Assembly (NCBI GenBank): GCA_039621445.1
Contig: CP154954.1
Location: 13,992,387 to 14,056,386, forward strand
DNA: 64,000 nucleotides
Direction: 5' to 3'
Origin: Euglena gracilis
Taxonomy: Eukaryota
Translations under genes and position numbers: made by a program
The notes under the pieces: model-generated
The model's database searches: none
Seen by the model: the letters and a program-made list of their open reading frames with translations, nothing else
Told to the model about the DNA's origin: nothing
In this document: positions 525 through 64,000 of the stretch, piece after piece
How positions within the stretch are numbered: position 1 is the stretch's first letter
Layout of the letters: each line of letters starts with the position of its first letter

Positions 525-3500
525 CTTAGGCGGCCTAATTCGCATTTAAGCTTTTTTATTTTTTTGCGCATTTGCGCAAATTTGCGAATTTTTTGATTCT
601 GCTTTGATTCGGCTGTGAAGGTCAGGGTGGTTTGAAAACACGTTGACAAGAGAGTGCAAAAAATATGCAAAATTCTGTTTTTGGCTGTGTGACCCCCGGG
701 ACCTTGCCCGCCCGCACTGAAAAAAATAAAAAAAAACACCAAAGGAACGGGACCTTTACTGCCCTTGTTGCTTCTTTCGGCTGTGTCCCCGGGTGTGCCC
801 GAGCTGCCGGCGGTGTGTGTCCTGGGTTTTTACCGGACTGCTTTGCTTGCGACGCCTTGCTGTGGTGTTTTGGGGCTGTTTGTCAAAGCGCGGGGAGGAG
901 GTGCCGGGGGGTGTGGGTGTTGTGTGACCGAGTGGGAAGGAGGGACGCAGTGAGAGGAAGGTAAGTGTGGGGTGTTGGGCAAGGGAAGGGCAGGGGGGAA
1001 GAAATAGGGTCCATAGGGAATGAGGGGGATGGGTGTCTCCCACCCAGCTTATACCCGGAATCCACACAACCAGTTGTGTGGCAAAGAACCCAGCAGAAGA
1101 AGCCCAACACCGGAAGGACAAAATTGTGTTTATTTGCGCGCAAATGCGTGCACCAACATGTTTATGTTTATTTGCGCATTTGCGCAAATAAACATAAACA
1201 TGCCCTTCAAGGATTGGGCTTTAGTACCCATGAACTGACGCTGTTGAAAAACGGTGTGACAAAGGAGCTGTGAGTGCGCAGACCAACGGGCCGTCCAGTT
1301 GGTAGGTTCGTCACACTGTTTGTCGACACGCAAGCTTATGGGCGCAAATGCGCACACAAACAAAAATTATGTTTATGTTCGCATTTGCGCAAATGCGCAA
1401 ACAAACATGTTCTTTGTTTATGTGCGCAAACGCGCAAATAAACACAAAGAAGAACGGTGTGATGGAAACACAACCGTCAAACACCAGCAGCAGATGTGGT
1501 CTATTTGCGCATTTGCGCGCATCACATTGTTTGTGGGCGCAAATGCGCAAATAAACTGCATGAGAAAACTGTACAATGTACATTTGGTTTATCTGCGCAT
1601 TTGCGCAAATAAACCACGTGATGCGCGCAAATGCGCAAATAAACCACCAACGGAGGAGTTTAAAGCGACTTCATTTGGCACTCCAACAACCACCCTCAGT
1701 GGCTTCTGAACGGGTTCAACCCAAATGGCAACACCGTCTCCTCTGGTATATGGTGTTTTGGTGCCGTATCTGGTGCCTTGACAGGTCCCACAAAAGACGG
1801 GAGACAGAGGATGTCCTGAGGTGGGTGCGCAGCCACCCAGTAACCGTACTCGTCCACCGGCACCAATTTTTGGGTCCCAAGGGCCCTGCCACTGGCCTGT
1901 GGCCTCGGCTCCGCTGTTGTAGCCACATCAGCTGCTGATGCTTCAGCACCCACCAGACCGGCATCCACCTCCCCGGTGCAACAACACCCAGCTTTAGCGG
2001 CCACGTTATACCCCACAACCGGGGCGTGAGACTGGGGGGACGACGTGGTGCCAGTGTATGGCAACCGGCAGCCGGAAAAAGGTAGCCCTCAAACACCCGT
2101 TATTTTGGGTGCAAGGAAGTGGTGAACCTTTACCACTGGATTGGTCGCATCAAAGCTGTGGGACTCACTCACCCCAAATTATGCACAAAAACTGGTGTGT
2201 TTTACGCATTTCAAGGCGAAAACGGTGGAGAATAACCAGAAAACGGACTACGGCCAGACACATCCCAGGTATTTCAGGTGCCAAATTTTGATTTCTTGCA
2301 ACGCAGTACTGTTACAGAAAAGGTGCCGAACAGTCACAGGTCGTTTGCACGTCATCAATTCATTACGTTTAACTGCCAAACAGATGACACCAAAGGAACA
2401 GGCCGTGTGGGCCGGGTAACAGCAGTGCAAATGTACACACATAAGACAGGCAAATTTTGGCCCGTCACATGCCGTGTTCCAGTGAGCATTACACACCACC
2501 TCTCACCACAAATTTCATCGCCATGTAATTGTGGTGCAAATCAATGGTTGGCATGAGGAATTGCGTTCGCCAGCCGTCACGGACGAGGAGATGGTATCGC
2601 ACAACTGATGTTTGTTCATTTGCCCATTTTGCGCAAATAAACACAATTTTGTTTGTGTGCGTTAAGGCTCGCTCAAACACATCATTTTGAAGCGGTTTAT
2701 TAATTGTTTATTTGTGCATTTGCGCAAATGCGCACACAAACGTAATTCTGTTTATTTGTGCAATTGCGCGCACCAACACGCCCAACACGTTTTAAAACCT
2801 CGTACGGTCATGGTCCTCATCAGGCTTGCGCTTAGTCGGGTGCCTACCCCACGGGGGGGGGTGCTAGGGGCAGGCACCCCATAGCACCCGATCCGGCCCC
2901 CCCCCCAGGGGGGGGTAGGGTTTTGGGGGGTGCCTGCCCCTAGCAGGCACCCCCCTCCGACCCCGGCGCCGAAGGTGCCGGGGGCCCGGAAAAGGCAATT
3001 TTCAATGAAAATTTTCTGGGTCCGGCCCGGACCCCTATCCCCCCCCCGGGGGGGTGCCTGCTAGGGGCAGGCACCCTATAGCACCCTCCCCCCCCCTCCC
3101 CCCCCGGTCGGTAAGCACAAGCATGGTCCTCATTGGTGTCTTTTAACATTGAAAGTAAAAATACATGTTTATTTGCGCATTTGCGCAAATAAACATAACT
3201 ATGTTGGTGTGCGCATTTGCGCAAATGCGCACACCAACAAATTTGTTTGTGTGCGCATTTGCGCCCACCAACACGTCAATTTAACTTCATCGTTGTATGT
3301 TTTATTTGCGCAAATGCACCCATAAACACAATTGTTTTTATTTGCGCAAATGCGCCCATAAACACAAATCAGTTGCGTGATGGCTGGTTGACGTAGTCTG
3401 TAGCACGTGATGTAATGAGGCTCAGTGTGTTCTTATCGTCTGCGGCAGTATCCAAGTCAGTTCAGCCAGCACGTCAGCACCATTTCCAAGTGTCGTAACA

Positions 3501-4429: not shown

Positions 4430-13850
<9,421 letters not shown>

Positions 13851-15431: not shown

Positions 15432-16837
15432 TGGGTCTTGCTGTTTTTGGTGTTAAATTAAATTGAACAGGAATTTTGCAGTTTTTTGGTGTTAAGTTTT
15501 GACTGCGCATTACAGGTGCATTTTTGTCTTAGTAATGTGAAATTGGTTTTTTCCCTTTCCACATCAGTTGCAGAGTTGTACAAATCATGTAGAATTTGGT
15601 TCCAGCCCTCAGCGGAGCTCAGTGCTATGGAGCAAAAGAAAACTGTCTGACCAAAATTGAAGCCCTTGGAATGCGCCTTTATCTAAATATCCAACCATAC
15701 TTTTTCCCAACTCCTTGTGTAGCCCGAGCTTGTAAGTGGTAAAAAAAATTGATGCCTTCAAAATATCTTGGAGATGAAGCAAAATCAAAGGAAATGTCTG
15801 GTGTCATAAAACAAAGCCCTTGGAACGCACCATCTAACGGTATTTTGGTTTCCCCGCAACTGCACGACTGCGCTGAAGATAGATGCATACATTGCACCAG
15901 GTGTCGTGTAGTGCTGAGCTCTTCACGTGTCTGATGGTCCCACAAAACAGCAGCTGTTTGAAGCATGTGGCTGCCAGCTGCCCAGCTACCCAGCCGGTGG
16001 CCCGCCGCCTGGCAGGGTTGACCTGGCAACCGGCAACCGCATACATCAAACAGCTGCTGTCTCGTGGTCTGGCGGGGGAATCAAAAATGCCATTGAATAA
16101 GGCTTTTTATGGGCTTCAGTGTTGGGTCTCCGGTGAATTTGCGTGGTTGGCCACCATTTTTCATTTTCAAAGCCATCCCCTGAACGAAAACCCTAATCCC
16201 AACCCTTAAACCCCATTCTGGATTTTAACCCTAACCCAAACACTAACCCAAACGCTGTTTCTCCCCCTGATTGGACATTTTTGTGAAGGTGGGTCCAATT
16301 TTTAAAGCTTTTTTTCAGTTTTTCGGTTTTTTTTATTTTCTCCAGCCAGCCAAAAAATTCTGCAAAAATATTTCTTGGTATTGATTGAATTATTTCTGTG
16401 TAAGCAGAGCCCCAAAACATAATCTTCCCTAGTGTTCATTTTGTTTCAAAACCATTTTTTTTTTGCGAAAAAGAAGAGGCAATTTTTTCTCCAGTTTGAT
16501 TGTCCTGTGTATTTCTCCTGACTTCTGAAGATAAAACAAAATGCAAAGTGGTGTGGGGTATGGAATCAATCTTTTTTTTGCAGGAGGGGTCAATATTTTT
16601 TATACAGACAGGTGAAACAAATTTGAAACAGACAGGGCTAGGATACTAAATGATGGGAGTGGGTCTTCCTGGATGGGATGGCCCCCCTGTGCGAAGGAAA
16701 GTTCGTTGCAAAATACCAGGACGTTGGAAGGGCCAGGCGTGTGGGTGGCCAAAACGGTGCACAGGACAACAAACTCGAGTTATTTTGATAACAATTGTCA
16801 ATTTTTGATCCAGAACAACTCACTTTGAGGATATGAG

Positions 16838-16901: not shown

Positions 16902-43677
<26,776 letters not shown>

Positions 43678-46600
43678 GCTGTCCCCCCATCGAACTCAAC
43701 ACTTTGCCCCGCCTTCCACCCACCACGACGCATATGCATTCCTGTGTGTGTTTGCCTCCTCACCTTTTCCTGCGATTTTAACAGCACTTTCAAGACACCT
43801 GTCACGGCGTCTTTTGGACGTTTGGCATCGCCTGCGGGAGACGCCCCAGTTTTACTGATTTGTACCATGACGCTTTTTCAGGATGGCTTTATGCAATTTA
43901 GGGTCACTGGGACATTTTTGGGCCCATTTCGCACAGCATATGCTTCGCATGTAATACACGTTCGTGTGTGCATGTGCATCTGTGTGTGTGGATGTGTGTC
44001 CGCGCGCGTGTGCGTGCGTGCGTGTGTGCGCGCGTGTGTGTGTGCGTTTCTGGATGCAGCAATTAGCCTCTAACCGCCAAATCTAACATCACGTTCATAC
44101 ATGTGATATAAGACAATGTTCCCAATTAAACCCCCCAAATAACCTGGCGGGGTCCTTGCTCCTGGCAGGGGCCGAATTACTTGGCAGGGGGAGGGGCAAA
44201 AAAAGATGGTTCCAGTAACTTGGCACCCCCCTTTTCAGGCAAAATTCCTTCATGTCGCTGAAAAAGGGGCCAAATAACATTACGGGGGGGGGGCAGGGCC
44301 AAAAGTTAGTTTCAATAACCTGGCATTGTATTTGGGGGTGGGGGTTACATGATTCCCCTCTTGCTGGCTGTGACAGTGCGGAGCACGAGTGGGGTCCAAG
44401 GAGGAAAGGAGGGGGGTTTCATCTTCTCAGGGAAAAATAAAAGAGGCGGGTGAGGTTTTGCCATTGATCTCAGTTCCGTTGAACCTTTACCACACGAATG
44501 GGCTGTGTTTTTAACTGGCAGGTGCAACCCCGAAGCCTGTATTGGAGATTTGAAACTTTATTTCCGACATGCCTACCCCCCCCCTCTTTTGAAGGGTGGA
44601 TTGGTGGCTGAGTTCAGACGTTCAAATTCTCATCATTTGATGCACTTAGTTGGGCATTGACTTTTTGTTGCCGGGGCATCCCTCTCCCACAACCAGGGCA
44701 GTCCTCAGGTGCAGTTCTTCTCTTTACTTTTCTTAAGGACTCCTTGGTGACCCCTTCCGGGCAATTGGCCCAGAAGGGGGGAACTGGAACCCAACCCCAG
44801 TCGAAACCCAAGGCGTTGCAAAACCATATCTTTTTGCATGTTTCACGTTGCTGGGCGATGTTCTATGGATGCCAGGTGTCGTGGTTTTCGTGTTCGGAAG
44901 ATCATCGCTGAAATAATATCCCCTCTGCCCTCCAGAAGAAAATAAAAAAATTATTATTTTTTGTCCGCCAAGCCACTGTAGATTACCTGAAGGACGGGAC
45001 AGCCAATTTGGGGTTATGTTGGTCTGAGGTGGTCTCTGAAGCATGTGCGGCCTCGTGGAGCAACGGGTGAAACAAGTGGGGGTTTTTGAGTCCCCAACAA
45101 ACAGTATTTTTTCAGCCAGGCATCGAGTGCCCCACTTTGTTGTAGCTTTCCAAACCCCTGCCACGGTCAGGTTTCTTTTTTAGGACAGTCACACCTTGAG
45201 GGGGGCTGCCATATGGTCAGGCGTTTGAAACCCCTTCAAGGACAGGTTTTTAGGGGTGGTGGTTCAAAAGCCCCCCTTCCAGGGCGTTGCTTAAGAAAAT
45301 TTGGCCCCCCCAGGGGGTCCAGCCAGCCAGCAGCCTTTTTCCAGCCCTGGAACCCCCTCCCTCCCCCCATCAACGAGTTGCATTTATTTCCAGCCGCCCG
45401 AAGGGTGGCTGGACGGTAATGGATTTTTCGCTTTCAGGAGTGCAGAAAAAATGGGCCAAAAATGGGTCAAAAATGGGCGAAAATGGGCTGGAAGAGGCTG
45501 GCCAGGGCAAATTTGGGGTCAAGAAATCGATTTTTTTTGCATAATTGGCAGTTTTTTGGGGGTATTTTTGCAGTTTCCATTTCTTTTGGTACCCAGTTCG
45601 ACCCTGGGCACCAGCTCCAGGACCCCTATGGAGGGGAGGGGCATGGCGCAACCCCTACCCGCCCTGGGAGGGAGGGGTGGTCAAGACCCACTCTCCAACA
45701 CCCCCTGCGGTTGGGGTCACACAGGTGTTAAGTGAACCTACGTCTTGTACATGCAGCAAGTGTCAATTTTAGGACCCTGGGATTTTTACTTACTGACTTG
45801 AAATTGGGTTGGCCATCTGTCCTTGGGGCGACTGGATACAGTAGGGTTGGGGTTAGGATTGTTGATTCTTAAAAATACTCCCTTCCTCCCTACCCGTCTA
45901 TTTGGGGGAGAGGGGAAGCGCGTTTCCCTCAGGCGGCAGAGGGATAGCGGGAGAAAAGAAAATGCCAATCGTGCCTCAACCAGGGACCAGAGTACAATTT
46001 TCTTTCAGTCTCCCAAAAAAGGCTCTCTGGGGTTGTTGAGGAATTGGGTTAGGGTTACGGTTTTAGTATTCTGGCACAAAAGTGCTAGGGCCTAACAATC
46101 CTAAACACAACCGGACTTCTTCCAATAAACCCTAAAGCCACATCGTCAACTGGGTGTGAAGCTCAGAACCCCCGCAGGGATCCTGAACTTAACACGTACA
46201 TATTTTCCCATCATTTCCCACCGCACATTTTCTACATCTTTTGCCACCTTTTCAACATCTTTTGAAAGAGCCATTTTGAGATTTGTAAATTTCGGGAACA
46301 AACAGAAAAAAGAAGAGGTCCATTTTTTCCCTTTCACAATCATTGATCGTTCCAAAATCGAAATGGGGGTCATCCAGCAGCCATTTTCCAGCCAGTCCAA
46401 TTTTTCCAGCCTCTGAGCTTCCCCCCCCCCCCGGGGGGAGGGGGGTCCCTGAGCAACGCCCTGCCCCCTTCCCATGGTGGTGGTGCTCATGGCGCATGGC
46501 TGTGGGATGGCACCCCCGAGTACAAGCCACCCTCTTCCCCACCCAAAGGTCAATATGAACAAACAGTTATATTATTTTGATACATAAATAAATAAATAAA

Positions 46601-46774: not shown

Positions 46775-49700
46775 ATGGCCGCCGCCGGCCGGCTGCTGGC
46801 GGCGGTGCTCCTCCTCCTCCTCCCCCTGCCGGGGTCGGCGGCCCTCCAACGGCCGCCTGCCCACCGGCGGGTGGCCCCAGTAGGACCGCGGTCTGGCTTA
46901 GCCGCCGCCGCCGGCCGGGGCTTACAGACCGACCCGCGGCCGACCCCCGTGGACCGCGGCATGGACGGTGTGTAGCGTGGATCGGCCGGTGCCCGCACAA
47001 CGCTGCCATGGCACGCTCCCTGTTTGTGCTTGGTGTCGCTCTACTCGGGTCGAATGATTTCCCTCTTCGTGGGGGGAGGGGGGGGCGTTGCCACTTCTCT
47101 CTCTGCCTCTCGGCAAGGGGTGGCACAAAAGTGGTTTTATTTGTGTTTTTTGCTTGTTTTCCGAATTTTGCAAATCTTTTCTATTTATTATTTTCTACAT
47201 TTATTGTATCTTTTTTTGTTATTTTGCATTTTTTTTGCCTTTTTCCCCTGTCGCGATTCTTGAGGTCTGTGTTGCTGTTGCGCCCCCGCCGCTGCTCCAC
47301 CCTGAGCCTCTCATGCCCCCACAGGGCTGCCCACATCCAACAGCGCTCTCCCCAGTGACGGCGGCCCACTGACGCTGGCACCGGGGCTTTGGGCAGCAAT
47401 CGCGGTGGCGTGCCTGGCCAGCGTTAGTTGCGCACTGCGCCGCTGGTGGACGGGGGACAGCCGGACCGGCGTCCTCCGACCACTCTGTGACCCTCGCCAG
47501 GCACCGCCTTCCGCGAGGCCCTGAGGTTGCTGTGCAGATGCCCTGATAAACACCCCCCCCCCCCCAATGTGCTGATGTACACTGAGGGTCTTTAAATTTC
47601 GCCCTTGGAAAGAATCGGCAAGGTTGGGTTTTGTTTTTGTATTTTTGGGGTGGGGGTCCCAAAATCGGCCCAAAATTTTTGGGGGGGGTACCCAAAAATC
47701 AAAAATTTGGGTCTCCATTGACGACGAGAGAAAACCACAGGAAACAATGGTCGACCACATAAAGAACACTGGCCTTGCCACGAGTTCTGTTCCGAAGGTT
47801 CCATTTACGGCACTTCGAAAGCAGCTCCTCAATCAAAGCTTGCTGGGCGACACTTTTCACATTTTTCTGAAATTTCTCGAAAATGGTGGGGAATCAAAGG
47901 AAACGTCCACAAACCTAAATTGAAGCCCTTAACATGCCCTATCTAACAACATTTTGATTTCCCCGCAAGTCCCCGCTTAGCCCGAGTTACGGCCATTTTT
48001 CGGCCGATTTTGGCCATTTTGTACAGTTTTGGCCTGTTTTGACTTAGCCGTTTTCGGCCAGTTTTGGGTCAAAAAAGTCGGAAAAAATCGAAAAAGAATT
48101 TTGCCCGAAACGATGTTTTTTGGCCTCCCAGACCTGAAAAGCCTGTTTTTGAGCCCAAAATGAGCGTTTTTCGCCCCTCCAGCGCCCCGTTTTTGGCCCA
48201 AACTCATGGAGGGTGGTTGCGATTTTGGTGGCCTTGACACTGTGGTCACAAGGGACACGGTTGACAATCCCCTCAACAATGGCTTTGTGGGACAACAAAC
48301 GTTTATACACTTGCTGAGGGCAAATCTGGTATTGAACTCCTGTCCACAGCTTTGTAGAATTTCTTGAAAGAAGCCATAAAGAAAGGGCTGTGTTGCTGAG
48401 AAAAAAAATTTCAAACAGGGGGTCCCCAAAATACAAATTCTTGGGGTTTTTGGGGAAGTACCAAAAAAACAAACCCAAAACCCAACCTTGGAATCGGGAG
48501 TCTGTGTCAGGCCGACTACCTCAGGGATAGGGTATTTGGCGAAGGCATTTCCGGCACCAAAGGTAGCAGATGCCCAGAAAAGCCTATTTTGGGGAAATTC
48601 TTGAGTCACCGCTGCCCCCCCCCTGCCCTCACCCCGGGAGGGGTAGTGCTTGCCTGCCACTCCACAAGGGGGAAACACAAATTCGTTTTTTTGTTTGTTT
48701 TTGTGCTTTTTTGTTTACGGCAAAATATGTGTTTTTTTTGGTTTTTTTTGTGCTTTTCCGGTGATTTTTTTTCATTTTTGCAGGAAAAATTTTTGACAAG
48801 AAAAAATTCCTCGCCTTGGTCCCGATTTTCCCCAGGACTAAATTTTTTATCAACTTTTGGCATTTTAATGTTTTTTGGTCAACAAATTGCATATTTTTTT
48901 GCAAAAACGAAAAAAAATTCCCCATGGAGCCAAAATTATTTCTAGGTTCTCTCCAGCAGAAAGTGTGCATTCCGTGGAGCTTCTAAGAATTTCATATGTA
49001 ATTTGCCGTTTTTTTGTGTGTGTGTTTTGTGTTTATTTGTGTTTTTGTGCTTTTTTTACGTCGTGTTATTCGAGAGTCCATGTTGCGTTCCCCCCTCTTC
49101 CAGGGTACCCCTTTCACCTCCCCTCCCACCCTGGGTGATCAAATCAGTCGGTCTGTGTTTGTGGGTGGGGTTATTTGGAATCAGAATGCACACTGTCCGT
49201 GTCACCAGTCAGCTCCTGCACACCACCGATCTCCAAATGGGTGAACTCTGACTTTGTTCAGTTTTAGAGTTGCTGGTAATGACTCTAAGGCGGTGGGTGC
49301 GCCACAATGCAGGGTTTCCCACTGATTCGTACACGAATAAGTACGAATAAGTACGAATAAGTGCGAATTGCCGAGATGTGCCAAAATACGAATAAGTACG
49401 AATAAGTACGAATAAGTACGAATGAAAAATTCCCCAGTTACGAATAAGTACGATTGCCAAGTAGAAAAAGGTACAATTTTCTGCACCAGTGCACTGAGTT
49501 GAAGGGCCCCTCACACTTCTCTGTATGTGATGCATATCTTACGCTGCAGGACGCCTCATGTCCTCTTTTCCCTCCGAAAATGATTTTTAGGTTTGCCCAT
49601 CAACAAGTTAGACCATCCATCCATCAGGGGACTCATCCGAAAGTACACATCTGTACATGGCAGTGTGAAAGAGGGGAGTAGTTTGCACCGGTCAGTGGAC

Positions 49701-54400: not shown

Positions 54401-57400
54401 CCTGAACCTTCATAAGGAGGAAACCTTGGACGAGGAGGAGAACCGTTTCCCATTCAGCAGTTTTTGTTTCGGGAGCATGCAAGGGAAATATTATTTAATT
54501 ATAACACAGCAGGTCAAGCAACACAATTTTCAAAAAATATATAATTTATATTTTTATATTTTTAATATTTTATTAATATTTTTTTTTGCTAAAGCAGGAA
54601 GAATGTATAATGCAATTTGCATCGATTCTTGTCGATCTGAAAGGCACATTCGACTCTTTGGCCCCTGCCTTTCAGGTGGAGTACTCACAATATATGCGGC
54701 AGGTGCTGGAGACCACCCCGAACCTCTGCCTGCGCGAGGGCACCGTCAGCGAGCTGTTAGTGGATGAGCACAACGACGAGGTCCGCGGGGTGCGGGCCAT
54801 GGATTCCCTGCCCCCTGCGGTGACCCACCCAGGGGGGGGGGTGTGAAGGAGGGGTGGGGGGGTGGGTAGGTTTGGACCGCTGGGCCCTCGGGGGGGGGGG
54901 GGAGCAGACATTCATTTAGTGTGGTACACCAAGGTTGTCATTTTGTGGTTCACTGTGGACACCAAAAATTTTTTGTGGTTCACATATGGACACCAGAAAA
55001 ATTTTTGTGGTTCACCTGTGGACACCAAGAAAATATTTGTGGTTCACATGTGGACACCAAACATTTGGGTCAATAAATCGATTTTTCTGATAATTGTTAA
55101 ATGATGAAAATTTCGAAAGTGGTGGGCAGGGAATTTCTTAAGGACCCCCCGGGGGGGTCCAGCCTCCGGCTGGCAAAAAGGCTGCTGGCTGGATTTGAGC
55201 TGCTGGCTGGACCCCCCCGGGGGGGTGGGGGGGGGAGGGGGGGGGTCCGGGGCTGGAGGGGGCTGGGCTGGGCTGGGTCGGCGAAAAACAAAATTTTCTA
55301 ACACATTTTTGCCATTTTCGACATTTTGGTGGATGGAGCTAGATCAAGGCTGGGGACTGTGATGGAGGAAGCTGTGGTGAGGGGAAAAAATGCAGGGATA
55401 GGTGAGCTGGGCAGCCCAGTTGGCTGGCCAGCCTGCGGCCGGCTGGCCCGGCCTTCGGCCGGCTGGCCCGGCCTTCGGCTGGGCTGGACCCGACTTTATT
55501 TCAGTCGACCCCTGGGGGGGGGGGTCCCAGCCCGAATTTGGGCTGCGGGCTGGATTTGAGCTGCTGGCTGGCTGGACCCCCCCCCCGGGGATAGGGTACC
55601 CTCCGGCTTAAGAAATTCCCTGGTGGTGGGGAGTTAAAGGAAACGTCCCGTGACTTGAATTGAAGCCCTTTGAAGCCCTATCTAACCGTATTTTGATTTC
55701 CCCGCAACTCCCTGCCCAGCCCGAGTTACAGCCATTTTTCGGCCAATTTGGGCCATTTTGTACAGTTTTGGCGTGTTTTGACTTAGCCGTTTTAGGCCAT
55801 TTTGGGGTTAAAAAAGGTGGAAAAAATTCGGAAAAAAAGTCGAAAAAAAATTCAGCCCGAAACGATTTTTCTCGGACCCAGAAGAACTGTTTTTGAGCCG
55901 AAAATGAGAGTTTTTTGACCCGTTTTTGACCCGTTTTTTTGACCTGTTTTTGGCGCCGGAAGGTTTTTTGCCCCCGCAGAGGAGGGGGGGGGGAGGTCCC
56001 CCCTTCCAAAACAAGGGGGTGGGGGGACCAGGTTTGAATAGCGTTGAGCTCTTAATGGGACTTGCACGTAATGGACGAGGGAAAAGACTAGCATCGCAAA
56101 TTTCGCATAAATTATGATTTACAAATTACACACCTGCAATTTGCAGTTATTTACAGTAATTTTTGAAAGGTTAAGAGGTCAGCGACCCCCTCCCATACCC
56201 CCTACACCCCTTTGGTTCAACTTTTTTGACCCGGAAATTTAGAAGTTTCGCGACCGAAAACTGGAGGTTGGAGGGGGTCCCCCACCCCCCCCCCCCTCCG
56301 CCGAGATTCCCATACAAGCCTGGGGGTGTGATTCGCTGCCGCATTTTACAGATTGCGCCGGAGCCAAGGTCCATATTTTGGCGTCTCAAGATCAATCCGC
56401 TTTTAGTTGTAAAACTTGATTTTTTTTTCGATCCTCAATCATGTTTTGTGGGCAACAAATTTTTTTGTGGACACCAAAATTTTTTTTGTGGTTCACCTGT
56501 GGACACCAAAAAAAATTTTGTGGTTCACATGTGGACACCAAAAATTTTTTTGTGGTTCACCTGTGGACACCGAAAAAAAATTTGTGGTTCACACGTCTTT
56601 TGTGAACCACACTAAATGAATGTCTGGGGGGGAGAGGTGCATTATTTGTTCGCGTGTTTGGGCCCAGGGAAAAGTCTCCCTGGGGGGGGTATTGAAGTGA
56701 ATCCATGGGACGGACCGTGTACGGGATGGAGTTCCATGCCCCGACCCTCGTGCTGACCGCTGGTACAGCCAGCGGCGAGCTTTAGAACATCCCAGGTTTG
56801 GAATGCCCAGCCTTGTTGCATCTTTTTTTTTGCCCACTCAATTTCCCTCCCCCCTGGTGCTCCCCCTTGCAAGTGATGGGTAGGCGGAGTTGTTCCAAGT
56901 GAACCAGCATGTGTGTTTTTCTTTGAGAGCACCATAGGGCACCACCCAAGGAATCAGAACAGGCTGGCTGGGGTTTCCCGCATTTTCAAGGGGGTGGGGT
57001 CAGTCGGTGTCGGTGGCCGATGGCACACCCCACACATGCTTTGCCCGGGCCGCCCGTCAGTCGCCGCTGCCGCCCGTTCATGAACGGCACCATCTGGGTG
57101 GGCCGCACCACGCGCTCCGCTGGGCGGGCCGGGGAGCAGGCCTCGACGGGCATCACGGAGCAGCTGCAGCGTCTGGGACAGGCCGGGCCGGGGGGCCAGG
57201 GTGCTCGGGGGCGGTGGCGGTGCGTGGGCGTGCCCCGTGATGTGGTGACGTGGTTGTCGCGGACCTGGGTGTCCAGCTGTGGCCGGTGCTGCAGTGGTGT
57301 CGTTTCATGGCCGGGGCGAGCTGGCCACCTCTTTTCAACCAGCCTTTTCCCCCCACCTTTCGCCTTGAAGCTGTCCTTGTTGCCAGAGTCGCTGTTGAAG

Positions 57401-60400
57401 TTGTCATTAATTGCGTTTTTGGTGGCAATTTGCATTTGGAGCTTTGTTCTAAAAGGACTACAAATGATACAGTTGTGGCCAGGCTGTTCTCCAGAAGGGT
57501 CACCCCATGGTGGGGTGCTTTGGGCAGGCAGGAGAAGACAACATCTTCGAACCCCTAGGGTCGGGTTGGGGAGGAGGTGTTAATTATCTGTGCATCCCAG
57601 GCACCGAAAGCGCCGAGGGGCGGAAAACGGCCATTCTCAAGCAGTGCGGTCCATTTGGGACGGGAAGGTTTTTTTTCCCATCAAGGACCGCCCTTAGGCC
57701 ACTGAAACAGCCGGTTCAGAACTCAAATGTTGTTAAAAATGAAAATGTCTAAGAACACATTTTTGACGTTTTGGGTGGACGGGCGATGGTCCAAGGTTGT
57801 TCCACACCATTTTTTTTCCTTCACCAAGTCGGCCCGTTTTGCCATGATATGGCCATACCATTTTCTCGGCAATGTTTCCTGCGGATTTCTCGTGGAATGC
57901 GCTGAGACAGGGAATGGGAATTTCGTCTCCTTCGCCGAGTCGGTTCCCCAAAACGACCCTGCAACGGAAAGGCCCCCAAACGGCACAAGGTGTCGCCCTC
58001 CCCCAAGCGTCTGACTGTAGCAATGCGGTCCAGCCCCGCGGACGCATCCGTCGGGGCCCCAGTGCCGGGCCTGGCCGAGGCTTCACCACCGACCGGCTGA
58101 AGACGGGGACGCCGCCCCGTGTCGATGGCCGGACCGTGAATTTCGCCGTGATGGAGCCAAACATTCACTTACCCGCCCCCCCTGTCATACGACCACCCCT
58201 CATTTACGACCACCCCCCCGGTCACAGGTTGCAGGTCATGGGGGTGTTATGACCACCCCCCCCCCCCCGGTCACAGGTTGCAGGTCATGGGGGTGTTATG
58301 ACCCCCCCCCCGGTCACAGGTTGCAGGAACCCGGTCGTACGACGGGGGGGGGGGGGCGGGTAACATTGATTTGACCCCCGGTTCCCGAAAACAGTCGGTG
58401 TGGGTGGGTGGGTTTGCGCCCAGGAAGTGTGTTGCTAAGTGAATCTGTGGATGGAGCCGATGCCAGGGGACTCCCGCACGCGGTGGTTCACCCACGACAC
58501 CGCTCGGCACGTGGAGCGGGAACAGGTCAGGGATTTTTTTTGGCTGGGTGGAAAAGTCGCAAAATTTGCCTCGCTTTTGTCCGCTGGTGGAGTTGCATTT
58601 TGCTCACAGCCCCAAATATTTTTTTTTTCACAAAAGCCCCAATTATTTTCAGCCAAACAGCCCTGCACCGATGCTGTGCTACGGGACGCGGACGACCGCC
58701 GCCACCCACCAACTGATCCGCGACAACCTCCACGAGACTCCGAACAGGGCCCGGCAGATGGCGGTGTTTTGGGGAACAGAAGTGTACAGTGAATTGTGTC
58801 TGGCCAAGTGCTTACCCGCAATCCATCCGGGACAAAGGTGGTATAATTATACATTAAATTGTTTCGATGAAGGCTTTCACATTCGGACCTCAAGCATCCA
58901 CTGAATTTTGGTACTGCTGACCTTGGAAGGTTGGGAGACAGATGCCTGTTGGGACCCGGTTTTCTTTTGTTGATTCACCCGGACCCTGGGGTGGATCTAT
59001 GGCGGTTGGGTGGATTCCAAAGGCCCTCGCAACTGCCCTTCCATCGAGGACAAGATTGTGAAGTTTGCCCAGAAGGAAAGCCACCTGGCGCCGAATGGAG
59101 ATTTGAATCCTCCCCCAGCCGCTTAGTGAGAACCGCCAGTGGAAGAGCTCTGCAACACCGGAATCAATGAAATTGCTTCCAAGCTTGGGTGAAATGAAAC
59201 TCGAACGCAGAGCTGCAGCACAGACACCACCGAAGCCAAATATGAAAAAAATATTAATTGTAATTTATGTTAATGAATTGGAAAACACTGATTAATTATA
59301 ATTATTGATCAAAAATACGAAAAAAAAGTAATCTTATTATGAATAATAGTAAACACTGACACAAATATTAAATATCATTATAAATATTAAGATATTGCAT
59401 TATAAACATTATTATTATTATTATTATTGAATAATATAATTGTAAATATCATTAATTGCCCCTTTTCTCACCGCCCGACCCCATTCGACTCCGAGGCCAC
59501 CCAGTGTTCCTGGAGCCCGAGGGGCGCCGCACGCCGGAGCTCTACGTCCAGGCCCAGGGTTTGAAACCAGCAGAGCGGGCACCGGTGCTCCCCCTCGTCC
59601 TCCCTGAACAATGGCAAACCCTGCCCGGGGCTGCTCCACCGGGCTGCCAGAGCGCCTGCAGCTGGGGCTGCTGCGGGCTGGGGGGTCCCGGAACGAGGGG
59701 TCAGGGCAGGTCTCGCACACTACACGCAAACAGAAACGGACACTGCCAAGAGACCCAGACATGCCCGTCTGTTCACACTCACACCCACTCATTCATCACA
59801 GGGCAGGGGGGAGGAATGCGCCGCGCATTTTTGCGCATTTTTTGCGCATTTTTTCCATTTTCCCACTTTTTTTTTACACTTTTTGGAGGCATTTTGTCCA
59901 TATTGTCCACATTGTCCATATGTCAAAAATAAATTTGACATTGGTGTTCTTGAACACCGTTCTTCTGAACAATTCTATGTTGCCATCCATCCCTCTTTCC
60001 GCCAATAATCAAATTCTCCATTCTTCCCTCAGATTTTTTCACAAAATGGCTTCAAGTTCAAGGGCTGATCATCCAACCTTTTGTTCAATGGAAATTTTAT
60101 TCTTGGACAAAAGCTTGCTGCCAAGAAGTTGAGCAGATGGAGCAAGATGAAATGCGGAATCCTACTCCCCTGGTCACAAGTAAGCGGCACCATGGCTGAC
60201 ATTGTTGGTTATGGTGAACGGAGAGTGACGCTGCTGAGTGACGTTGCTCGTGCATTTTTTTTTGGCCAAAATGCCTTCATTTCAGCTCTTTTTGGTGATT
60301 TTGGTTTAATTTTGGGCTTATCGTTGGAAATTTTTCTAAGTCCTTTTTCCCTTAGGAATTTCACAACTCAGCGCATTTTTGCGCATTTTTGCGCATTTTT

Positions 60401-61546
60401 TTCCGAGGGCCGTCCAGCGCATCCCCCCCCCTGCACATGGGTAGACACGCACTCGCATTTATTTTAAAGCATACACACTCCCGTGCACACAAGCAGATAA
60501 ACGATAAACGCACAAACACACACAGACAAAGAAACACACATGTGTGCATAAACACACGCACGATCCTCAAACGTTGGTGGTGTCCTCCACGTTCTACAAA
60601 AGAGCTCCACATATAATCACCCTTTGAAGCTCAACCCTCGCTGCTCTTCCTCCCCCTCTTGTTTGGACCTCGCCCGGGCTCCCCCATCGAGGGACGCTGC
60701 CGGGGATGGAGCAGGTGAAGATGGTGCGGCCCGGCTATGCCATCGAATATGACTACATTCCCGCCACGCAGTGCACGCGAACCCTGCAGGCCAAGACGGT
60801 GCGCGGCCTGTACCTCGCTGGCCAGGTGTGCGGGGGCGGAATGAAAGTGGCACCTTGAATTGACCTATCCCCTGCGAAACACCAGCTCCATCACTTACCA
60901 ATTGATTTGATACACACACATATATACACATATTCATATATATGATCACATATGAATATATTAACAACGTGCATTACGAATATGTATTAACATGTATTAA
61001 TATGTTCATGCAGGTATGAATGCATAGCAATGCATTTTTTTAATATATATAATATGTATTAATATATCAATGTGTACAAATATGTTTTAATGTATATTCA
61101 TAGGTTGATAAATAATTGTATTTATATGATTTTTATTTCAAATCCAGCCCCCCCCCACAGGTGTGCGGCACGACGGGGTACGAGGAGGCGGCGGGGCAGG
61201 GCCTCGTGGCGGGGGCCAACGCCGCCCTCGCAGCGCTGGGCCGCCCAGGGGATTTAGTGAACTGGTGTTTTGCACAGGCAGAGGGGCAGACCCGGGCAGG
61301 AGGGGGGGCAGACCCGAAGGTGGGACCCCCCGCGCGATTTGTTTTCTTGGAGCATGCTCTAGATTTTGTTAAAAAAAAACGTATGCGAAGCCGCGATATT
61401 GGACCTTTTTTCCCAGTTCCCCCAAAATTTTTCCAGCGCTTTAAGCTGGAGAGTCTGTTGTGCCCCCCCCTGGTCACTCAATACCCTGTGGCCGCCCCGC
61501 GCTGGAGCTGCCGCGGGAGTCGTCGTACATCGGCACCATGGTGGAC
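46775..61546 (+). CDS. mnmG: plastid-targeted tRNA uridine-5-carboxymethylaminomethyl modification enzyme MnmG/GidA, multi-exon, 3' part beyond the window
   Basis: Exons: 46775-46967 (signal peptide [23 protein letters not shown]), 47325-~47500 (second [23 protein letters not shown]), ~50931-50981 (frame uncertain), 51560-51696 ([23 protein letters not shown]...[10 protein letters not shown]), 53843-53965 ([19 protein letters not shown]), 54176-54209, 54676-54794, 56713-56766, 57076-57175, 58079-58154 ([13 protein letters not shown]), 58455-58525, 58671-58741, 58994-59082 ([11 protein letters not shown]), 59499-59551 (FLEPEG), 59629-59674, 60692-60825 ([10 protein letters not shown]...LAGQ), 61161-61242 ([12 protein letters not shown]), 61494-~61546 ([11 protein letters not shown]). 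Confidence 0.95.
47897..48180. repeat. dispersed repeat, homologous to ~55637-55960
   Basis: Both copies share AAGGAAACGTCC...TTGAAGCCCTT...TTTTGATTTCCCCGCAA...GCCCGAGTTAC...TTTTGTACAGTTTTGGC...GACTTAGCCGTTTT. A fragment also lies at ~63045-63110. Confidence 0.85.
49310..50290. mobile_element. ~1-kb MITE with 23-bp perfect TIR, 7-bp TSD and subterminal 10-bp arrays
   Basis: CAGGGTTTCCCACTGATTCGTAC (49310-49332) is perfectly inverted at 50268-50290. TSD CACAATG at 49303-49309 and 50291-50297. (GTACGAATAA)n arrays lie at both ends. Confidence 0.92.
51697..53842 (+). other. nonconventional intron in mnmG
   Basis: Joins AAC CC|A GCC (CNPAVGG). gccCGCGGCCC pairs with GGGCAGCGatggc. Y|R at both borders. 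Confidence 0.8.
53966..54175 (+). other. nonconventional intron in mnmG
   Basis: Joins GGA CC|G GCT ([11 protein letters not shown]). ggcCAGGC...GCCTGaggtc, with CAG at +4 and CTG at -8. Confidence 0.85.
54905..56626. mobile_element. 1.7-kb hAT-like non-autonomous element
   Basis: TIR CAGACATTCATTTAGTGTGGT is perfect over 21 bp. 8-bp TSD GGGGGGAG. Subterminal TGTGGTTCACCTGTGGACACCAAAAA arrays. Confidence 0.9.
55127..55622. mobile_element. hAT-like MITE nested in 54905-56626
   Basis: Perfect 16-bp TIR CAGGGAATTTCTTAAG. Perfect 8-bp TSD GTGGTGGG (55119-55126, 55623-55630). Confidence 0.92.
56767..57075 (+). other. nonconventional intron in mnmG
   Basis: Joins GGT AC|G TTC (AGTFMNG). Perfect 9-bp stem CAGCGGCGA / TCGCCGCTG, in a 3+6 register. 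Confidence 0.8.
57176..58078 (+). other. nonconventional intron in mnmG
   Basis: Joins CTG|GGC TTC ([10 protein letters not shown]). ggaCAGGCCGGGC / GCCGGGCCTGgccga stem (9/10). Confidence 0.82.
58155..58454 (+). other. nonconventional intron in mnmG that is a TIR element with a perfect 8-bp TSD
   Basis: GATGGAGC at 58150-58157 and 58450-58457 flanks CAAACATTCACTTA...TAAGTGAATCTGTG. Removal gives [12 protein letters not shown]. Confidence 0.85.
58169..58363. mobile_element. small TIR element with ~50-bp internal tandem repeats, inside an intron
   Basis: TTACCCG-polyC-TGTCATACGACC is inverted as GGTCGTACGAC-polyG-CGGGTAA. Three CCGGTCACAGGTTGCAGG units. Related sequence at ~32860-32970. Confidence 0.7.
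58526..58670 (+). other. intermediate intron in mnmG (GT 5' end, non-AG 3' end, paired ends)
   Basis: Joins GAA CAG|ATG (EREQMLCY). CAGGG / CCCTG stem; 7 nt in total lie outside the stem. Confidence 0.7.
58742..58993 (+). other. nonconventional intron in mnmG
   Basis: Joins ACT CC|G ATC (HETPIYGG). gaaCAGGGCCCGG / CCGGACCCTGgggtg stem (9/10). Confidence 0.85.
59083..59498 (+). other. nonconventional intron in mnmG with 7/8 TSD
   Basis: Joins AGC C|AC CCA ([12 protein letters not shown]). Flanks AAGCCACC / AGGCCACC. Stem TGGCGCCGAATGG / CCATTCGACTCCG. Confidence 0.82.
59552..59628 (+). other. 77-nt nonconventional intron in mnmG
   Basis: Joins CAG|GGC ([11 protein letters not shown]). Perfect 9-bp stem CAGGGTTTG / CAAACCCTG. 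Confidence 0.85.
59675..60691 (+). other. intermediate/nonconventional intron in mnmG
   Basis: Joins C|GG ACG (LLRTLPG); the boundary can slide by 2 nt. Stem TGGGGGTCCCGG / CCGGGCTCCCCCA. Confidence 0.7.
59804..60433. mobile_element. MITE with 7-bp TSD
   Basis: CAGGGGGGAGGAATGCGC / GCGCATCCCCCCCCCTG termini. Flanks CACAGGG / CACATGG (6/7). GCGCATTTTT repeats. Confidence 0.75.
60826..61160 (+). other. GT-AG intron in mnmG flanked by an 11-bp direct repeat
   Basis: CAGGTGTGCGG at 60823-60833 and 61158-61168. Joins [11 protein letters not shown]. Confidence 0.85.
61243..61493 (+). other. nonconventional intron in mnmG with 7/8 TSD
   Basis: Joins GGC C|GC CCC ([11 protein letters not shown]). 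TIR CAGGGGATTTAGTGA / TCACTCAATACCCTG (13/15). Flanks GGGCCGCC / TGGCCGCC. Confidence 0.88.
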
Positions 61547-61939
61547 GGCCGCCGCCCTGCATGGATGGCACCAGGACCCACTGAGTCCAGAGGGGAGGGG
61601 GCGGTTGTTGTCTGAGGTTGTGACGGGGACCGGCTCACCCCCCCCCCTGCAACCCTCGCACCCGCCAATACAAGGCCCTCCTACCTCCTATTACAAAAAT
61701 CTGCGGCCGTGGTATCTGCCAATTTTTTATTCAGTACGTCAGAGTGCAAGGACAGTGGGGGGGCATCTTGCACAGGTGGGCGTGGTAGATAGAAAGCACA
61801 GGGAATCCCAGAGTGCTGGCAACACATGCTGTTTGCACTCCTGCCCTGTTTGCACACAGTGCCCTGTTGGAAGGAGGGAGTTTGATTGGGGGGTCACCCA
61901 ATTTTGTTAACTGTCTCTGGTCTCAACTGGGTTTTTAAC

Positions 61940-62464
61940 CAGGGGGCGGGGAATATGCAATTTGCATAATTTGCAGGTTTTTTTTGCATAATCAGGTTTT
62001 TCCGAAATTTGCTTTTTTTGCATTTTTTTTGCATTTTTTTGCAATAAATTTTTTTTGCATTTTTAAAATATTTTACCTTGGACAATTTTTTGTAGTTGGT
62101 CGCCATGTCATGTTTGGTCCCTCTGCAGTTGCCTGGGGTCTTTGGTACTTTCACCCTAGTAAAAGGCCGCCACTTTAATGATGTTGATGGTGACCTGGAG
62201 GGACGATTTGCTTTGCCTGAACGTGCAGGTGCCATTCGTGTTGATTTTCAAAGCTTCAGTGCTTGCCGTTGTCTTCCAGGAGGTCTTCTTTGTGAATCAT
62301 TGGCAGGTACACCGGCATTGTCACATGTTCACGGATTTTAGGCAGCAAACCTCTGTTATATTCCAGCCTTTTCTCAGGGGTTTAATGCAAGTTGCATTTT
62401 TCTGCATTTTTTTGCATTTTTTTACTTGCATAATTTGAAGGGCCAAGTTGCATATCCCCCCCTG
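61940..62464. mobile_element. MITE with 7-bp TSD
   Basis: CAGGGGGCGGGGAATATGCAA / TTGCATATCCCCCCCTG termini. TSD TTTTAAC at 61933-61939 and 62465-62471. TTTTTGCA subterminal repeats. Confidence 0.8.
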
Positions 62465-64000
62465 TTTTAACTGAGTTTTCAATTTCTTAAAATAGAAATG
62501 CTTTTCACACCAAATTGCTTTTCAGAGAAGTGGTTAATTAATTTATCAATGTTTTTGAGTACTGCTCAGATGTTTACAAGGGTGGGGGCCAGAACGATTG
62601 GCCCATTAATTTTGCAGTGGGCAAAGTTGTTTGGGGTACTGAAATGACCCCTCCCAATTAGAAGCCCCCAGGAGTTATTGTTCGGTCAGTCTGCGGAAAA
62701 CCCGAGGGGGGCTTCTAATGGGGCACCCTTGTGTGGGGCCCAAAAAACTTTCGGCGCTTCGCGTCGGGTGTAAAAAGTCAGGCTTTTTGGGCTTGTGTTG
62801 ACGTGGAAATAATTCCTTTTTATGCGCACACTCTCGGGTCCCCTGCCAGAGTTCCTCGAAGATTTCACTCTTTTTGATGCCCCCAAAGAATCCGATCCAC
62901 CTGCATTTGTGTGCTTGTGGTTGGCCAGCGCCTTGAATACGTACAGCTGCTTGGGGGAGGGGGGCTGTTATTTGGATTTTTGGCGGCGGGAAACCCGAGG
63001 GGGGGGGGGCTTCTATTTGGGGGGGTTCAACCCCCTTGTCCAATTAATTTTGCACCGTTTTGGCCTGTTTTTGACTCAGCCGTTTTTGGGTCATTTCGGG
63101 GTCAAAAATACACAAAAAAATAATACAAAAAAAATTCAAAATGTCTCCCAAATTACGGCCTATCAAAGGAAATCACTGTGTACTTGTGTAATTCTTAGCT
63201 GTAGAGGCTGCCAGGTCTACGTTCAGCTGCACGCCTACCTCCTGATATGGCCCCTTTTGGATTGTTTTGGTCTCCCAGTAAGATGGTCATTAAAACAGCC
63301 ACTGTTCGTCTCAGACTGGGGGGGCACCTATGGCGTCAATTATTGACCATGGGTTGGGGTATAGGGCCATTTTAGGCTGTTTTTGGTCCTGTTGGCTAAC
63401 TCATCACTTTAACCAGTTTGGGCATTTTGGCAATTTCCGACAACTTTTGGGCCATTTTTGGCGTTGTTGGTCATTTCTAAGGGCACTTGTGGCAATTTTT
63501 AGCCAAATTATTGCAACCTTTCGTTGTTTGTCGCAACCCTTCAGAATGCTGAGCCACGTTTTGCATTATCATCAGCCATTCTGGGTATTTTTTAACCTTT
63601 TTGGGGGGGCCCCATCGGACTGTTGCTTACCAATTACCAATGTTTGCCGTTTGGAGAATTTTTGTTTTGATTGATTTTTTTTGCGCTAACCACCACATCC
63701 TGATTTTCACGAAAGCATATCCTTTTGCACGCTTTCCTTTGCGGGGAGAGGGGGCAAAGTGGACGGTTACTTTTCGGCATTCTCCCTGGCAAAGATATTT
63801 GTGCCTGAAAACTTTAACCCCCCCCTCCAAAATGACCCCAAAACCCAGGACCCCAAAAGAAGGCATGTACTCATTTTGGGCGGGATTTTTTTTAGGGCAC
63901 CTTAAAGTCAGGTTGGTGGGTCATTTTTCAAAAAGCACCAACACACCGGGCGTGCCGAACCCATGGCCCAGGGCTGTGCGGGAAGCCCCGAAATCATATG

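Follow-up and report, generated by a model that had tools for sequence, protein, structure and literature searches.

How a short stretch of foreign DNA can interrupt a coding exon and yet leave the encoded protein apparently whole is the question raised by a gene for the tRNA-modifying enzyme MnmG (MTO1) in Euglena gracilis. The gene lies in a 64,000-nucleotide stretch of contig CP154954.1 (assembly GCA_039621445.1, forward-strand positions 13,992,387 to 14,056,386), which is here called the window and in which all positions below are counted. At the site of its sixth intron, a 292-bp insert stands between two exact copies of an 8-bp sequence. This insert is very probably a transposon insertion, and it is probably removed from the RNA as a nonconventional intron; taken as a whole, the account in which a transposon inserted into an MnmG exon and is removed as a nonconventional intron is the one that we favor on balance. 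Both MITE insertion (a MITE being a miniature inverted-repeat transposable element) and break repair have been proposed as origins of such introns (PMC3935182; PMC4770533), and the present locus makes the hypothesis simply testable.

The insert (58158..58449, + strand) is MITE-like and non-coding, has a G+C content of 62% and occurs as a single copy in the window. Read directly from the sequence, the two copies of GATGGAGC occupy 58150..58157, where the left copy contributes to the codons V-M-E-P, and 58450..58457, both on the + strand; because identity continues through 58158, the direct repeat is 9 nt long, GATGGAGCC, once the next C is counted. The insert begins with CAAACATTCACTTA (58158..58171) and ends with TAAGTGAATCTGTG (58436..58449), which form 14-nt terminal inverted repeats (TIRs) complementary at 12 of 14 positions. 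Between them lie internal tandem repeats (58204..58327), composed of a 49-nt unit present twice at 96% identity and a 32-nt core present three times. Short length, lack of coding capacity and TIRs are traits of MITEs, as is a target-site duplication (TSD) of fixed length abutting the TIRs, which is complete here (8/8, or 9/9 with the next base). In the frame of the upstream exon, the open reading frame (ORF) 57848..58252 ends at a TGA within the insert (58250..58252), so the insert cannot be read through.

To delineate the surrounding gene, P0001 and two MnmG proteins of bacteria served as tblastn queries; their matches form 15 exon segments, all on the + strand, that begin at 51560 and reach at least 61642. 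The closest relative found, P0001, is of euglenid origin and 581 aa long; it is a tRNA uridine 5-carboxymethylaminomethyl modification enzyme encoded on an intronless 1790-nt contig. A junction scan, in which each in-frame donor/acceptor pair was scored against P0001, reconstructed 13 MnmG introns; all of the resulting frames are open and homologous, and the gene is therefore intact in other respects. At intron 6, the best-scoring junction removes exactly 300 nt, that is, the insert plus one repeat, and joins the exons 58079..58154 and 58455..58525 (both + strand, from tblastn and the junction scan), the latter followed by a GT-AG intron at 58526-58652 (+ strand). The corresponding stretch of P0001 is ALEPMPGDD, and no gap is needed to align the bacterial proteins P0003 and P0039 (both MnmG). 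The position of the insert is exactly that of the one place where collinearity with the orthologues breaks. Owing to the direct repeat, ten registers of the intron (starts 58150-58159) are identical at the DNA level and yield one and the same mRNA. A first-pass annotation of this DNA had pointed out the exact 8-bp duplication around the 292-bp insert and the in-frame stop at 58250-58252, and had claimed that removal of the insert with one repeat restores collinearity with MnmG; the stop is confirmed by the ORF that ends there, the duplication extends even to 9 nt, and the claim of collinearity holds against P0001, P0003 and P0039 alike.

Could a repeat of this kind be accidental or an artefact of assembly? 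A scan for pairs no more than 3 kb apart in which a perfect 8-bp direct repeat abuts TIRs matching at 10/12 or better, with low-complexity sequence removed, returned 22 pairs in the window, whereas each of 15 block shuffles yielded 0. The filtered version was used since a looser, unfiltered scan is swamped by (TA)n low complexity; the filter also removes three real elements with G- or C-rich TSDs (starting at 45280, 54905 and 55127). Fifteen of the 22 pairs sit in one repeat array (1184-3341), and the insert is among the remaining seven. An accidental origin draws some support from looser criteria (TSD at least 7/8, TIR at least 10/12), under which 5-11 chance occurrences arise per shuffled window. 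The perfect repeat with TIRs is found in none of the 15 shuffles, however, the insert falls exactly at the only break in collinearity, and its termini match those of a neighboring transposon, so that chance or misassembly is scarcely credible.

A second possibility is that the insert is removed by ordinary spliceosomal splicing. A GT at 58148-58149 and an AG at 58455-58456 lie 309 nt apart and in frame, and cryptic splicing from 58148 to 58456 would give a product three residues shorter (VNFAPMPGD). Such a product would lack V-M-E, yet these positions are filled in P0001 (A-L-E) as well as in P0003 and P0039; furthermore, a polypyrimidine tract is absent before the AG, and the junction scan ranks the 300-nt removal best. 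None of the ten 300-nt registers has GT-AG or GC-AG borders. These points make the spliceosomal route highly improbable. Intron 6 likewise shows none of the GT-AG or U12 borders, derived from the element or its TSD, that characterize spliceosomal introners.

The borders are instead reminiscent of euglenid nonconventional introns, for which two rules are available. The looser one, derived from tubulin genes, places CA at positions +4,+5 and TG at -7,-6 (PMC3935182). It is satisfied in the register 58155..58454 (CAA/GTG followed by A), and also in 58159..58458 (CAT/ATG followed by G). From the junction and register scans, we therefore take 58155..58454 (+ strand) as the predicted nonconventional intron 6, with the purine A58455 opening the downstream exon. 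The stricter code, N3-CDG/CH'G-N5-6 followed by a purine (R), was defined by experiment and places a spacer of 3 nt ahead of CAG and one of 5 nt behind CTG (PMC12501133). In the same gene, introns 1, 4, 5, 8, 10 and 13, six of its 9-10 non-GT/AG introns, follow it as N3-CAG/CTG-N5-6 with the purine; introns 3 and 6 follow the loose rule only, and intron 11 follows neither. Introns 2, 7 and 12 are GT-AG, and intron 9 is of ambiguous type, with a GC-AG register present. At the level of RNA, the inner parts of the TIRs of the insert (58165-58170 and 58437-58442) are predicted to pair with probabilities of 0.82-0.99, and their helix, perfect over 9 bp, appears in the minimum free energy structure. 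Frame and homology are the evidence that points to a functioning intron 6, and its removal from the RNA is a probable rather than a certain event.

The ends of the insert provide insights into its origin. Among 30 termini compared, the nearest neighbors of its ends are the TIR of a 1722-bp element 1.5 kb away (12/14 for the 5' end and 11/14 for CACAGATTCACTTA, which is the 3' end in reverse complement) and the 3' end of MnmG intron 3 (10-11/14, with 11/14 for CACAGATTCACTTA). Only 4 of 420 between-element pairs of termini reach 12/14; in this comparison the rows for introns 1 and 10 and for the right end of intron 4 are off-register by 1-4 nt, which slightly blurs the background. The 1722-bp element (54905..56626) is a structurally complete, non-autonomous DNA transposon, as judged from the repeat and junction scans. 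Its TIR, CAGACATTCATTTAGTGTGGT, has 28-nt arms that are 93% complementary and perfect over the first 21 nt, arrays of a 32-nt subterminal repeat occur at both ends, and a perfect 8-bp TSD, GGGGGGAG, lies at 54897-54904 and 56627-56634. Exon pieces of MnmG at 54673-54794 and 56713-56767 flank the element on either side. The first-pass annotation was thus right about the TIR of this element and about its resemblance to the ends of the insert, but had taken the element to be free, when in fact it sits within the third intron of MnmG itself.

Intron 3 (54795..56712, + strand) is a nonconventional intron of the CAT/ATG type, identified by the junction scan, with a flank identity of 5/8; once the nested 1722+8 bp are subtracted, 188 nt of it are left. 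The sequences at its ends, CATGGATTCCCT and AGTGAATCCATG, belong to the same ATTCAYTT terminus group. Exact CANNNATTCAYTT occurs five times in 64 kb, always at the termini of three elements within MnmG, namely the insert, the 1722-bp element and intron 3, against about 0.24 occurrences expected by simple arithmetic on a uniform base composition rather than by shuffling. The raw counts of the TIR motif are not significant (4 matches versus 2.36 expected, with 23 of 100 shuffles reaching 4; at no more than one mismatch, 21 versus 14.3, with 9 of 100 shuffles reaching 21). It is the placement of the motif, rather than its raw count, that is non-random. Given that raw counts are not significant and that looser pairs arise by chance, the case stands on the perfect repeat, its coincidence with the break in collinearity and the identity of the termini.

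The resemblance ends with the termini. Between the insert and the 1722-bp element, blastn at word size 9 found no match in the internal sequence, and the subterminal repeats of the two differ (GTGGTTCAC-type versus ACGACCACCCC-type). Of the earlier proposal that the intron belongs to a specific MITE family, the shared TIR therefore stands (12/14 and 11/14) and the shared family does not: as the termini but not the internal sequences are shared, the insert, intron 3 and the 1722-bp element appear to form a terminus subfamily, CA-N3-ATTCAYTTA, rather than one MITE family. Such a subfamily would be compatible with mobilization by related transposases.

Direct evidence that elements of this end type move comes from a second, smaller transposon. 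A 496-bp MITE (55127..55622) with a perfect 16-nt TIR, CAGGGAATTTCTTAAG, is nested in the 1722-bp element and is flanked by a perfect TSD, GTGGTGGG, at 55119-55126 and 55623-55630. When the MITE was excised in silico, its flanks aligned to a paralogous repeat at 47868-48177 with 80% identity over 323 columns, and this repeat carries the unoccupied target site as a single copy, ATGGTGGG (47883..47890, + strand). Since the empty site carries the target only once, elements with CAG..CTG ends do transpose and create 8-bp duplications.

The interval 54795-56712 accordingly holds three levels of nesting, with the 496-bp MITE in the 1722-bp transposon and the latter in the 188-nt intron 3. Both inner elements match the strict pattern N3-CAG/CTG-N5 followed by G by eye, so that RNA from intron 3 might undergo processing in the manner of a nested nonconventional "twintron". 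The repeat that supplies the empty site is about 300 bp long and dispersed, with at least four copies at 80-84% identity (55624-55921, 47868-48177, 15787-15861 and 63047-63108), one of which is part of the 1722-bp element.

The two nested transposons are members of a broader class. In a scan for CAG..CTG pairs with TIRs matching at 10/12 or better and near-perfect flanking repeats (at least 7/8 at length 8), 149 pairs were evaluated, and near-perfect flanks were found for seven pairs at length 8, three at length 7, none at length 9 and one at length 10, as opposed to none in 20 shuffles. The seven comprise the elements at 11067-11466, 23862-24239, 34857-35108 and 45280-46463, the 1722-bp element, the 496-bp MITE and MnmG intron 13; the perfect-repeat scan adds to the class the CAG-ended element at 2821-3125, with its 8-bp flanking repeat, and the 292-bp insert itself. 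Two members, the 1722-bp element and the 496-bp MITE, do not interrupt an exon. The five elements outside MnmG measure 252-1184 bp and have TSDs of 7-8 of 8 and TIRs near CAGGNNNTTNYTTAR; ORFs that span the junctions at 2821, 11067, 23862, 34857 and 45280 are uninformative as to whether these were exons, the DNA being G+C-rich.

Within the gene, traces of the same duplication length can be discerned at other introns. Intron 13 (61243..61493, + strand), a nonconventional intron of the strict code, contains a CAG..CTG element (61246-61488) flanked by GGGCCGCC and TGGCCGCC, which agree at 7 of 8 positions. For the eight nonconventional introns of MnmG that entered a flank-identity test (six strict-code and two loose-rule introns, of the gene's 9-10), the mean identity between the 8 nt that precede the terminal helix and the 8 nt that follow it was 4.75 versus 3.05 for cross-paired flanks, with a permutation p of 0.0016 (0.012 without intron 6). 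The flanks of these introns look like decayed duplications. The best-preserved duplications are those of intron 6 (8/8) and intron 13 (7/8), and the seven introns compared other than intron 6 range from 2/8 to 7/8. That the TSD of intron 6 is the best preserved is consistent with youth, and the intact TSD suggests that intron 6 is young.

The superfamily to which the class belongs can be narrowed tentatively. An 8-bp TSD is a trait of hAT transposons, whose terminal consensus is YARNG. Seven elements end in CAGGG (11067, 34857, 45280, 55127 and introns 8, 10 and 13); the fifth position of the consensus is missed by CAGGC (2821, 23862 and intron 5), by CAGAC (the 1722-bp element) and by CAAAC and CACAG (the insert). 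The class may be called hAT-like, a description that refers to its 8-bp TSD and CAG-type ends. Merlin transposons with 8-bp TSDs have also been described in E. gracilis (PMC8101967). They resemble the elements of the window in the length of the duplication, but their TIRs end in 5'-GG, as opposed to CA(G)...(C)TG here, and an assignment to Merlin was rejected.

With these elements in hand, the principal proposal for intron gain without transposition can be weighed. In E. agilis strain ACOI 323, intron 4 of gapC is a strain-specific nonconventional intron with eight-nucleotide direct repeats that was taken as a recent gain, and its repeats were tentatively attributed to double-strand-break repair (PMC4770533). 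Applied to MnmG, break repair with staggered fill-in would account for the 8-nt repeat, and it would sit well with an insert that is single-copy in the window. It would not account for an insert bounded by inverted repeats whose sequence is akin to the TIR of a structurally complete transposon 1.5 kb away, nor for 8-bp duplications at CAG..CTG elements outside exons, one of them with a paralogous empty site, nor for a profile of repeat lengths that peaks sharply at 8. We regard gain by break repair as very unlikely at this site. The 8-nt repeats are nevertheless a feature that gapC intron 4 and MnmG intron 6 have in common. The two differ in that the absence of the gapC intron from other strains has been demonstrated, whereas the youth of intron 6 is read from its TSD, and in that the ends of intron 6 are tied to a transposon TIR and to an 8-bp-TSD class with an empty site.

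The favored account, a transposon insertion removed as a nonconventional intron, can be put as a sequence of steps. A small non-autonomous DNA transposon would insert in a coding exon of the nuclear MnmG/MTO1 gene and duplicate the 8-bp target GATGGAGC. In the pre-mRNA, the inverted ends of the element would pair and bring the two target copies together, and the machinery for nonconventional introns would cut 3 nt upstream and 5 nt downstream of the helix. The cuts would remove the element plus exactly 8 nt, one duplication's worth, and so restore the frame that existed before the insertion. Because spacers of 3 nt and 5 nt add up to the 8-bp duplication, this arrangement would explain the exactness with which the frame is restored. 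Exact erasure of an exonic insertion would require a purine at target position 6, which here is A58455. From this evidence, we infer excision at the RNA level, youth and mobilization of the insert by the same transposase family. A wider form of the proposal, in which euglenid nonconventional introns stem directly, and to this day, from a CAG...CTG transposon superfamily with 8-bp TSDs, and in which the cuts fall at 3 and 5 nt because these sum to the duplication, seems to us to be evenly poised between right and wrong.

Several observations weigh against the favored account. With regard to splicing, the strict code is found in none of the ten registers of intron 6, where the purine rule alone holds; the 5' triplet is CAA and does not fit CDG, and the sole CTG would need a 7-nt spacer. 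The failure arises from an A/G mismatch at the third pair of the terminal triplets (CAA/GTG). At -9.9 kcal/mol, the terminal duplex of intron 6 is the weakest of ten compared, the others ranging from -14.4 to -35 kcal/mol for seven introns and standing at -24 and -31.5 kcal/mol for the two transposons, and the fold of the whole intron is no more stable than those of shuffled sequences (z +1.4). With regard to transposition, a sequence search of the 64-kb window found no second copy of the insert, and the inside of the insert resembles neither the 1722-bp element nor anything else in the window, so that its repetitiveness and family membership are unproven. Three substitutions fall within the outermost 5 nt of its TIRs despite the perfect TSD, which is odd for a very young insertion of a perfect-ended element. 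Finally, a search for a transposase among the 10 longest of the 44 window ORFs of at least 170 aa found 0 Pfam families.

Much of this evidence bears on the main rival, namely, that a recent insertion is spliced poorly or not at all. In that case the MnmG copy would be a null allele or a weak one, such as a single haplotype in a polyploid clone, and its transcripts would either be cut short at the TGA or fall to nonsense-mediated decay. The absence of the strict code from all ten registers and the weakness of the terminal duplex are what would be expected of such an insertion, and a perfect TSD would leave too little time for selection to become visible. In addition, a test intron in a knock-in assay lost its splicing upon single base changes within CAG or CTG, and lengthening a spacer by 2 nt lowered splicing further (PMC12501133). 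Three or four of the 9-10 nonconventional introns of MnmG, however, miss the strict code in an otherwise intact conserved gene, including the old intron 3 (CAT/ATG, TSD 5/8), and genome-wide the strict signature was present in 61.2% of E. agilis nonconventional introns and lacking from the remaining 38.8% of those annotated (PMC12501133). Intron 6 retains, moreover, the loose CA/TG rule, the purine rule and the perfect 9-bp inner helix. A poorly spliced or unspliced insertion is unlikely, although it is the alternative that we take most seriously.

As for an empty site of the 292-bp insert itself, the comparison reaches as far as its collinearity with P0001 at the level of mRNA. In a collection of 5.8 billion proteins, no cDNA-derived MnmG protein from E. 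gracilis itself was found, the best match being P0001 at 77-81% identity, nor was one found among proteins of 22-72 aa. A metagenome scan with P0001 retained 80 loci, all uninterrupted, at no more than 64% identity and with no close euglenid relative among them.

Several known systems offer points of comparison. Euglenid nonconventional introns (PMC3935182; PMC11282704; PMC12501133) and intron 6 have in common the lack of GT-AG borders, inverted ends that can pair, the CA/TG and purine positions and borders that can slide along direct repeats. Intron 6 departs from the typical case in its CAA/GTG mismatch and unmatched strict code, and in a flanking repeat that is complete rather than vestigial. 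The introners and MITE-derived introns of Micromonas, Aureococcus, dinoflagellates and Fritillaria are, like the insert, non-autonomous transposons with TIRs and TSDs in which the TSD helps to set the borders and the frame is restored (PMC11282704). Those introners are spliceosomal and use GT-AG or tolerated variants, whereas the borders of intron 6 would be set by distance from a helix (3 nt and 5 nt).

A comparison can also be drawn with the maize Ds element, a hAT transposon that, in work attributed to Giroux et al. from 1994, was reportedly spliced as a de novo intron through cryptic spliceosomal sites, and imprecisely so. Ds is like the insert in being non-autonomous and from a superfamily with 8-bp TSDs; removal of the insert is by contrast predicted to be exact, at the element plus 8 nt.

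A MITE origin of nonconventional introns was proposed in 2013 (PMC3935182), and a review from 2024 repeats it with reference to TIRs and "TSD-like" repeats (PMC11282704). In 2025, a genome-scale study in which 71.8% of E. agilis introns were nonconventional still called their origin unclear (PMC12501133). In the literature searched, which lay outside supplements and subscription journals, no paper was found that, for these introns, names a family of transposons, a class with 8-bp TSDs or the argument that 3+5=8. Viewed against this background, the insert is a further and unusually clean example of a kind already hypothesized, and a young intron with 8-nt repeats is already on record. The idea that euglenid nonconventional introns come from transposons gains real support from the nested transposons, the empty site and the 8-bp class. 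Here an intron whose 8-bp duplication is intact is tied to structurally complete transposons that share its type of ends, and for one of these an empty site exists; the locus also suggests a reason for the 3- and 5-nt splicing spacers. Should the wider form of the proposal be correct, any exonic insertion with a purine at target position 6 would be erased from the mRNA without a scar, and the MnmG locus would hold a full series, from a fresh insertion (intron 6) through a slightly decayed one (intron 13, 7/8) to old ones (2-5/8). Like elements would also transpose into non-exonic DNA, at this locus three levels deep.

Further features of the gene and the window were recorded. For the last third of MnmG at the C terminus (P0001 residues 384-581), tblastn gave no position in the 61642-64000 that remain; this part may be encoded past the end of the window or in short, diverged exons. 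A 151-aa ORF, P0002, which comes from a 2.6-kb genomic contig of a relative and closely matches P0001, was compared with window positions 60692-60825; it breaks off where introns 11 and 12 of the window do, so that both intron positions appear to be shared between species. Intron 12 (60826-61160), a conventional GT-AG intron, has on either side a copy of the 11-nt sequence CAGGTGTGCGG, a direct repeat in which the AG/GT junction lies; introner insertions, which supply splice sites, show a similar configuration. Elsewhere, a 462-bp element (28728-29189) has a perfect 12-nt TIR that begins with TGGCAGGTGGGA and flanks that agree at 7 of 8 positions (TATGCATA and TATACATA), with an end type unlike that of the CAG class. 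Short palindromic repeats based on TTGCGCAAAT and GCAAATAAAC form an array at 1180-3350, which is a source of many spurious pairs of TSD and TIR. Long (TA)n tracts lie at 7461-8470 and 18990-19075, and a dinucleotide microsatellite, the type of which is suggested by the (TH)n translation of its ORF, lies at 31527-32300.

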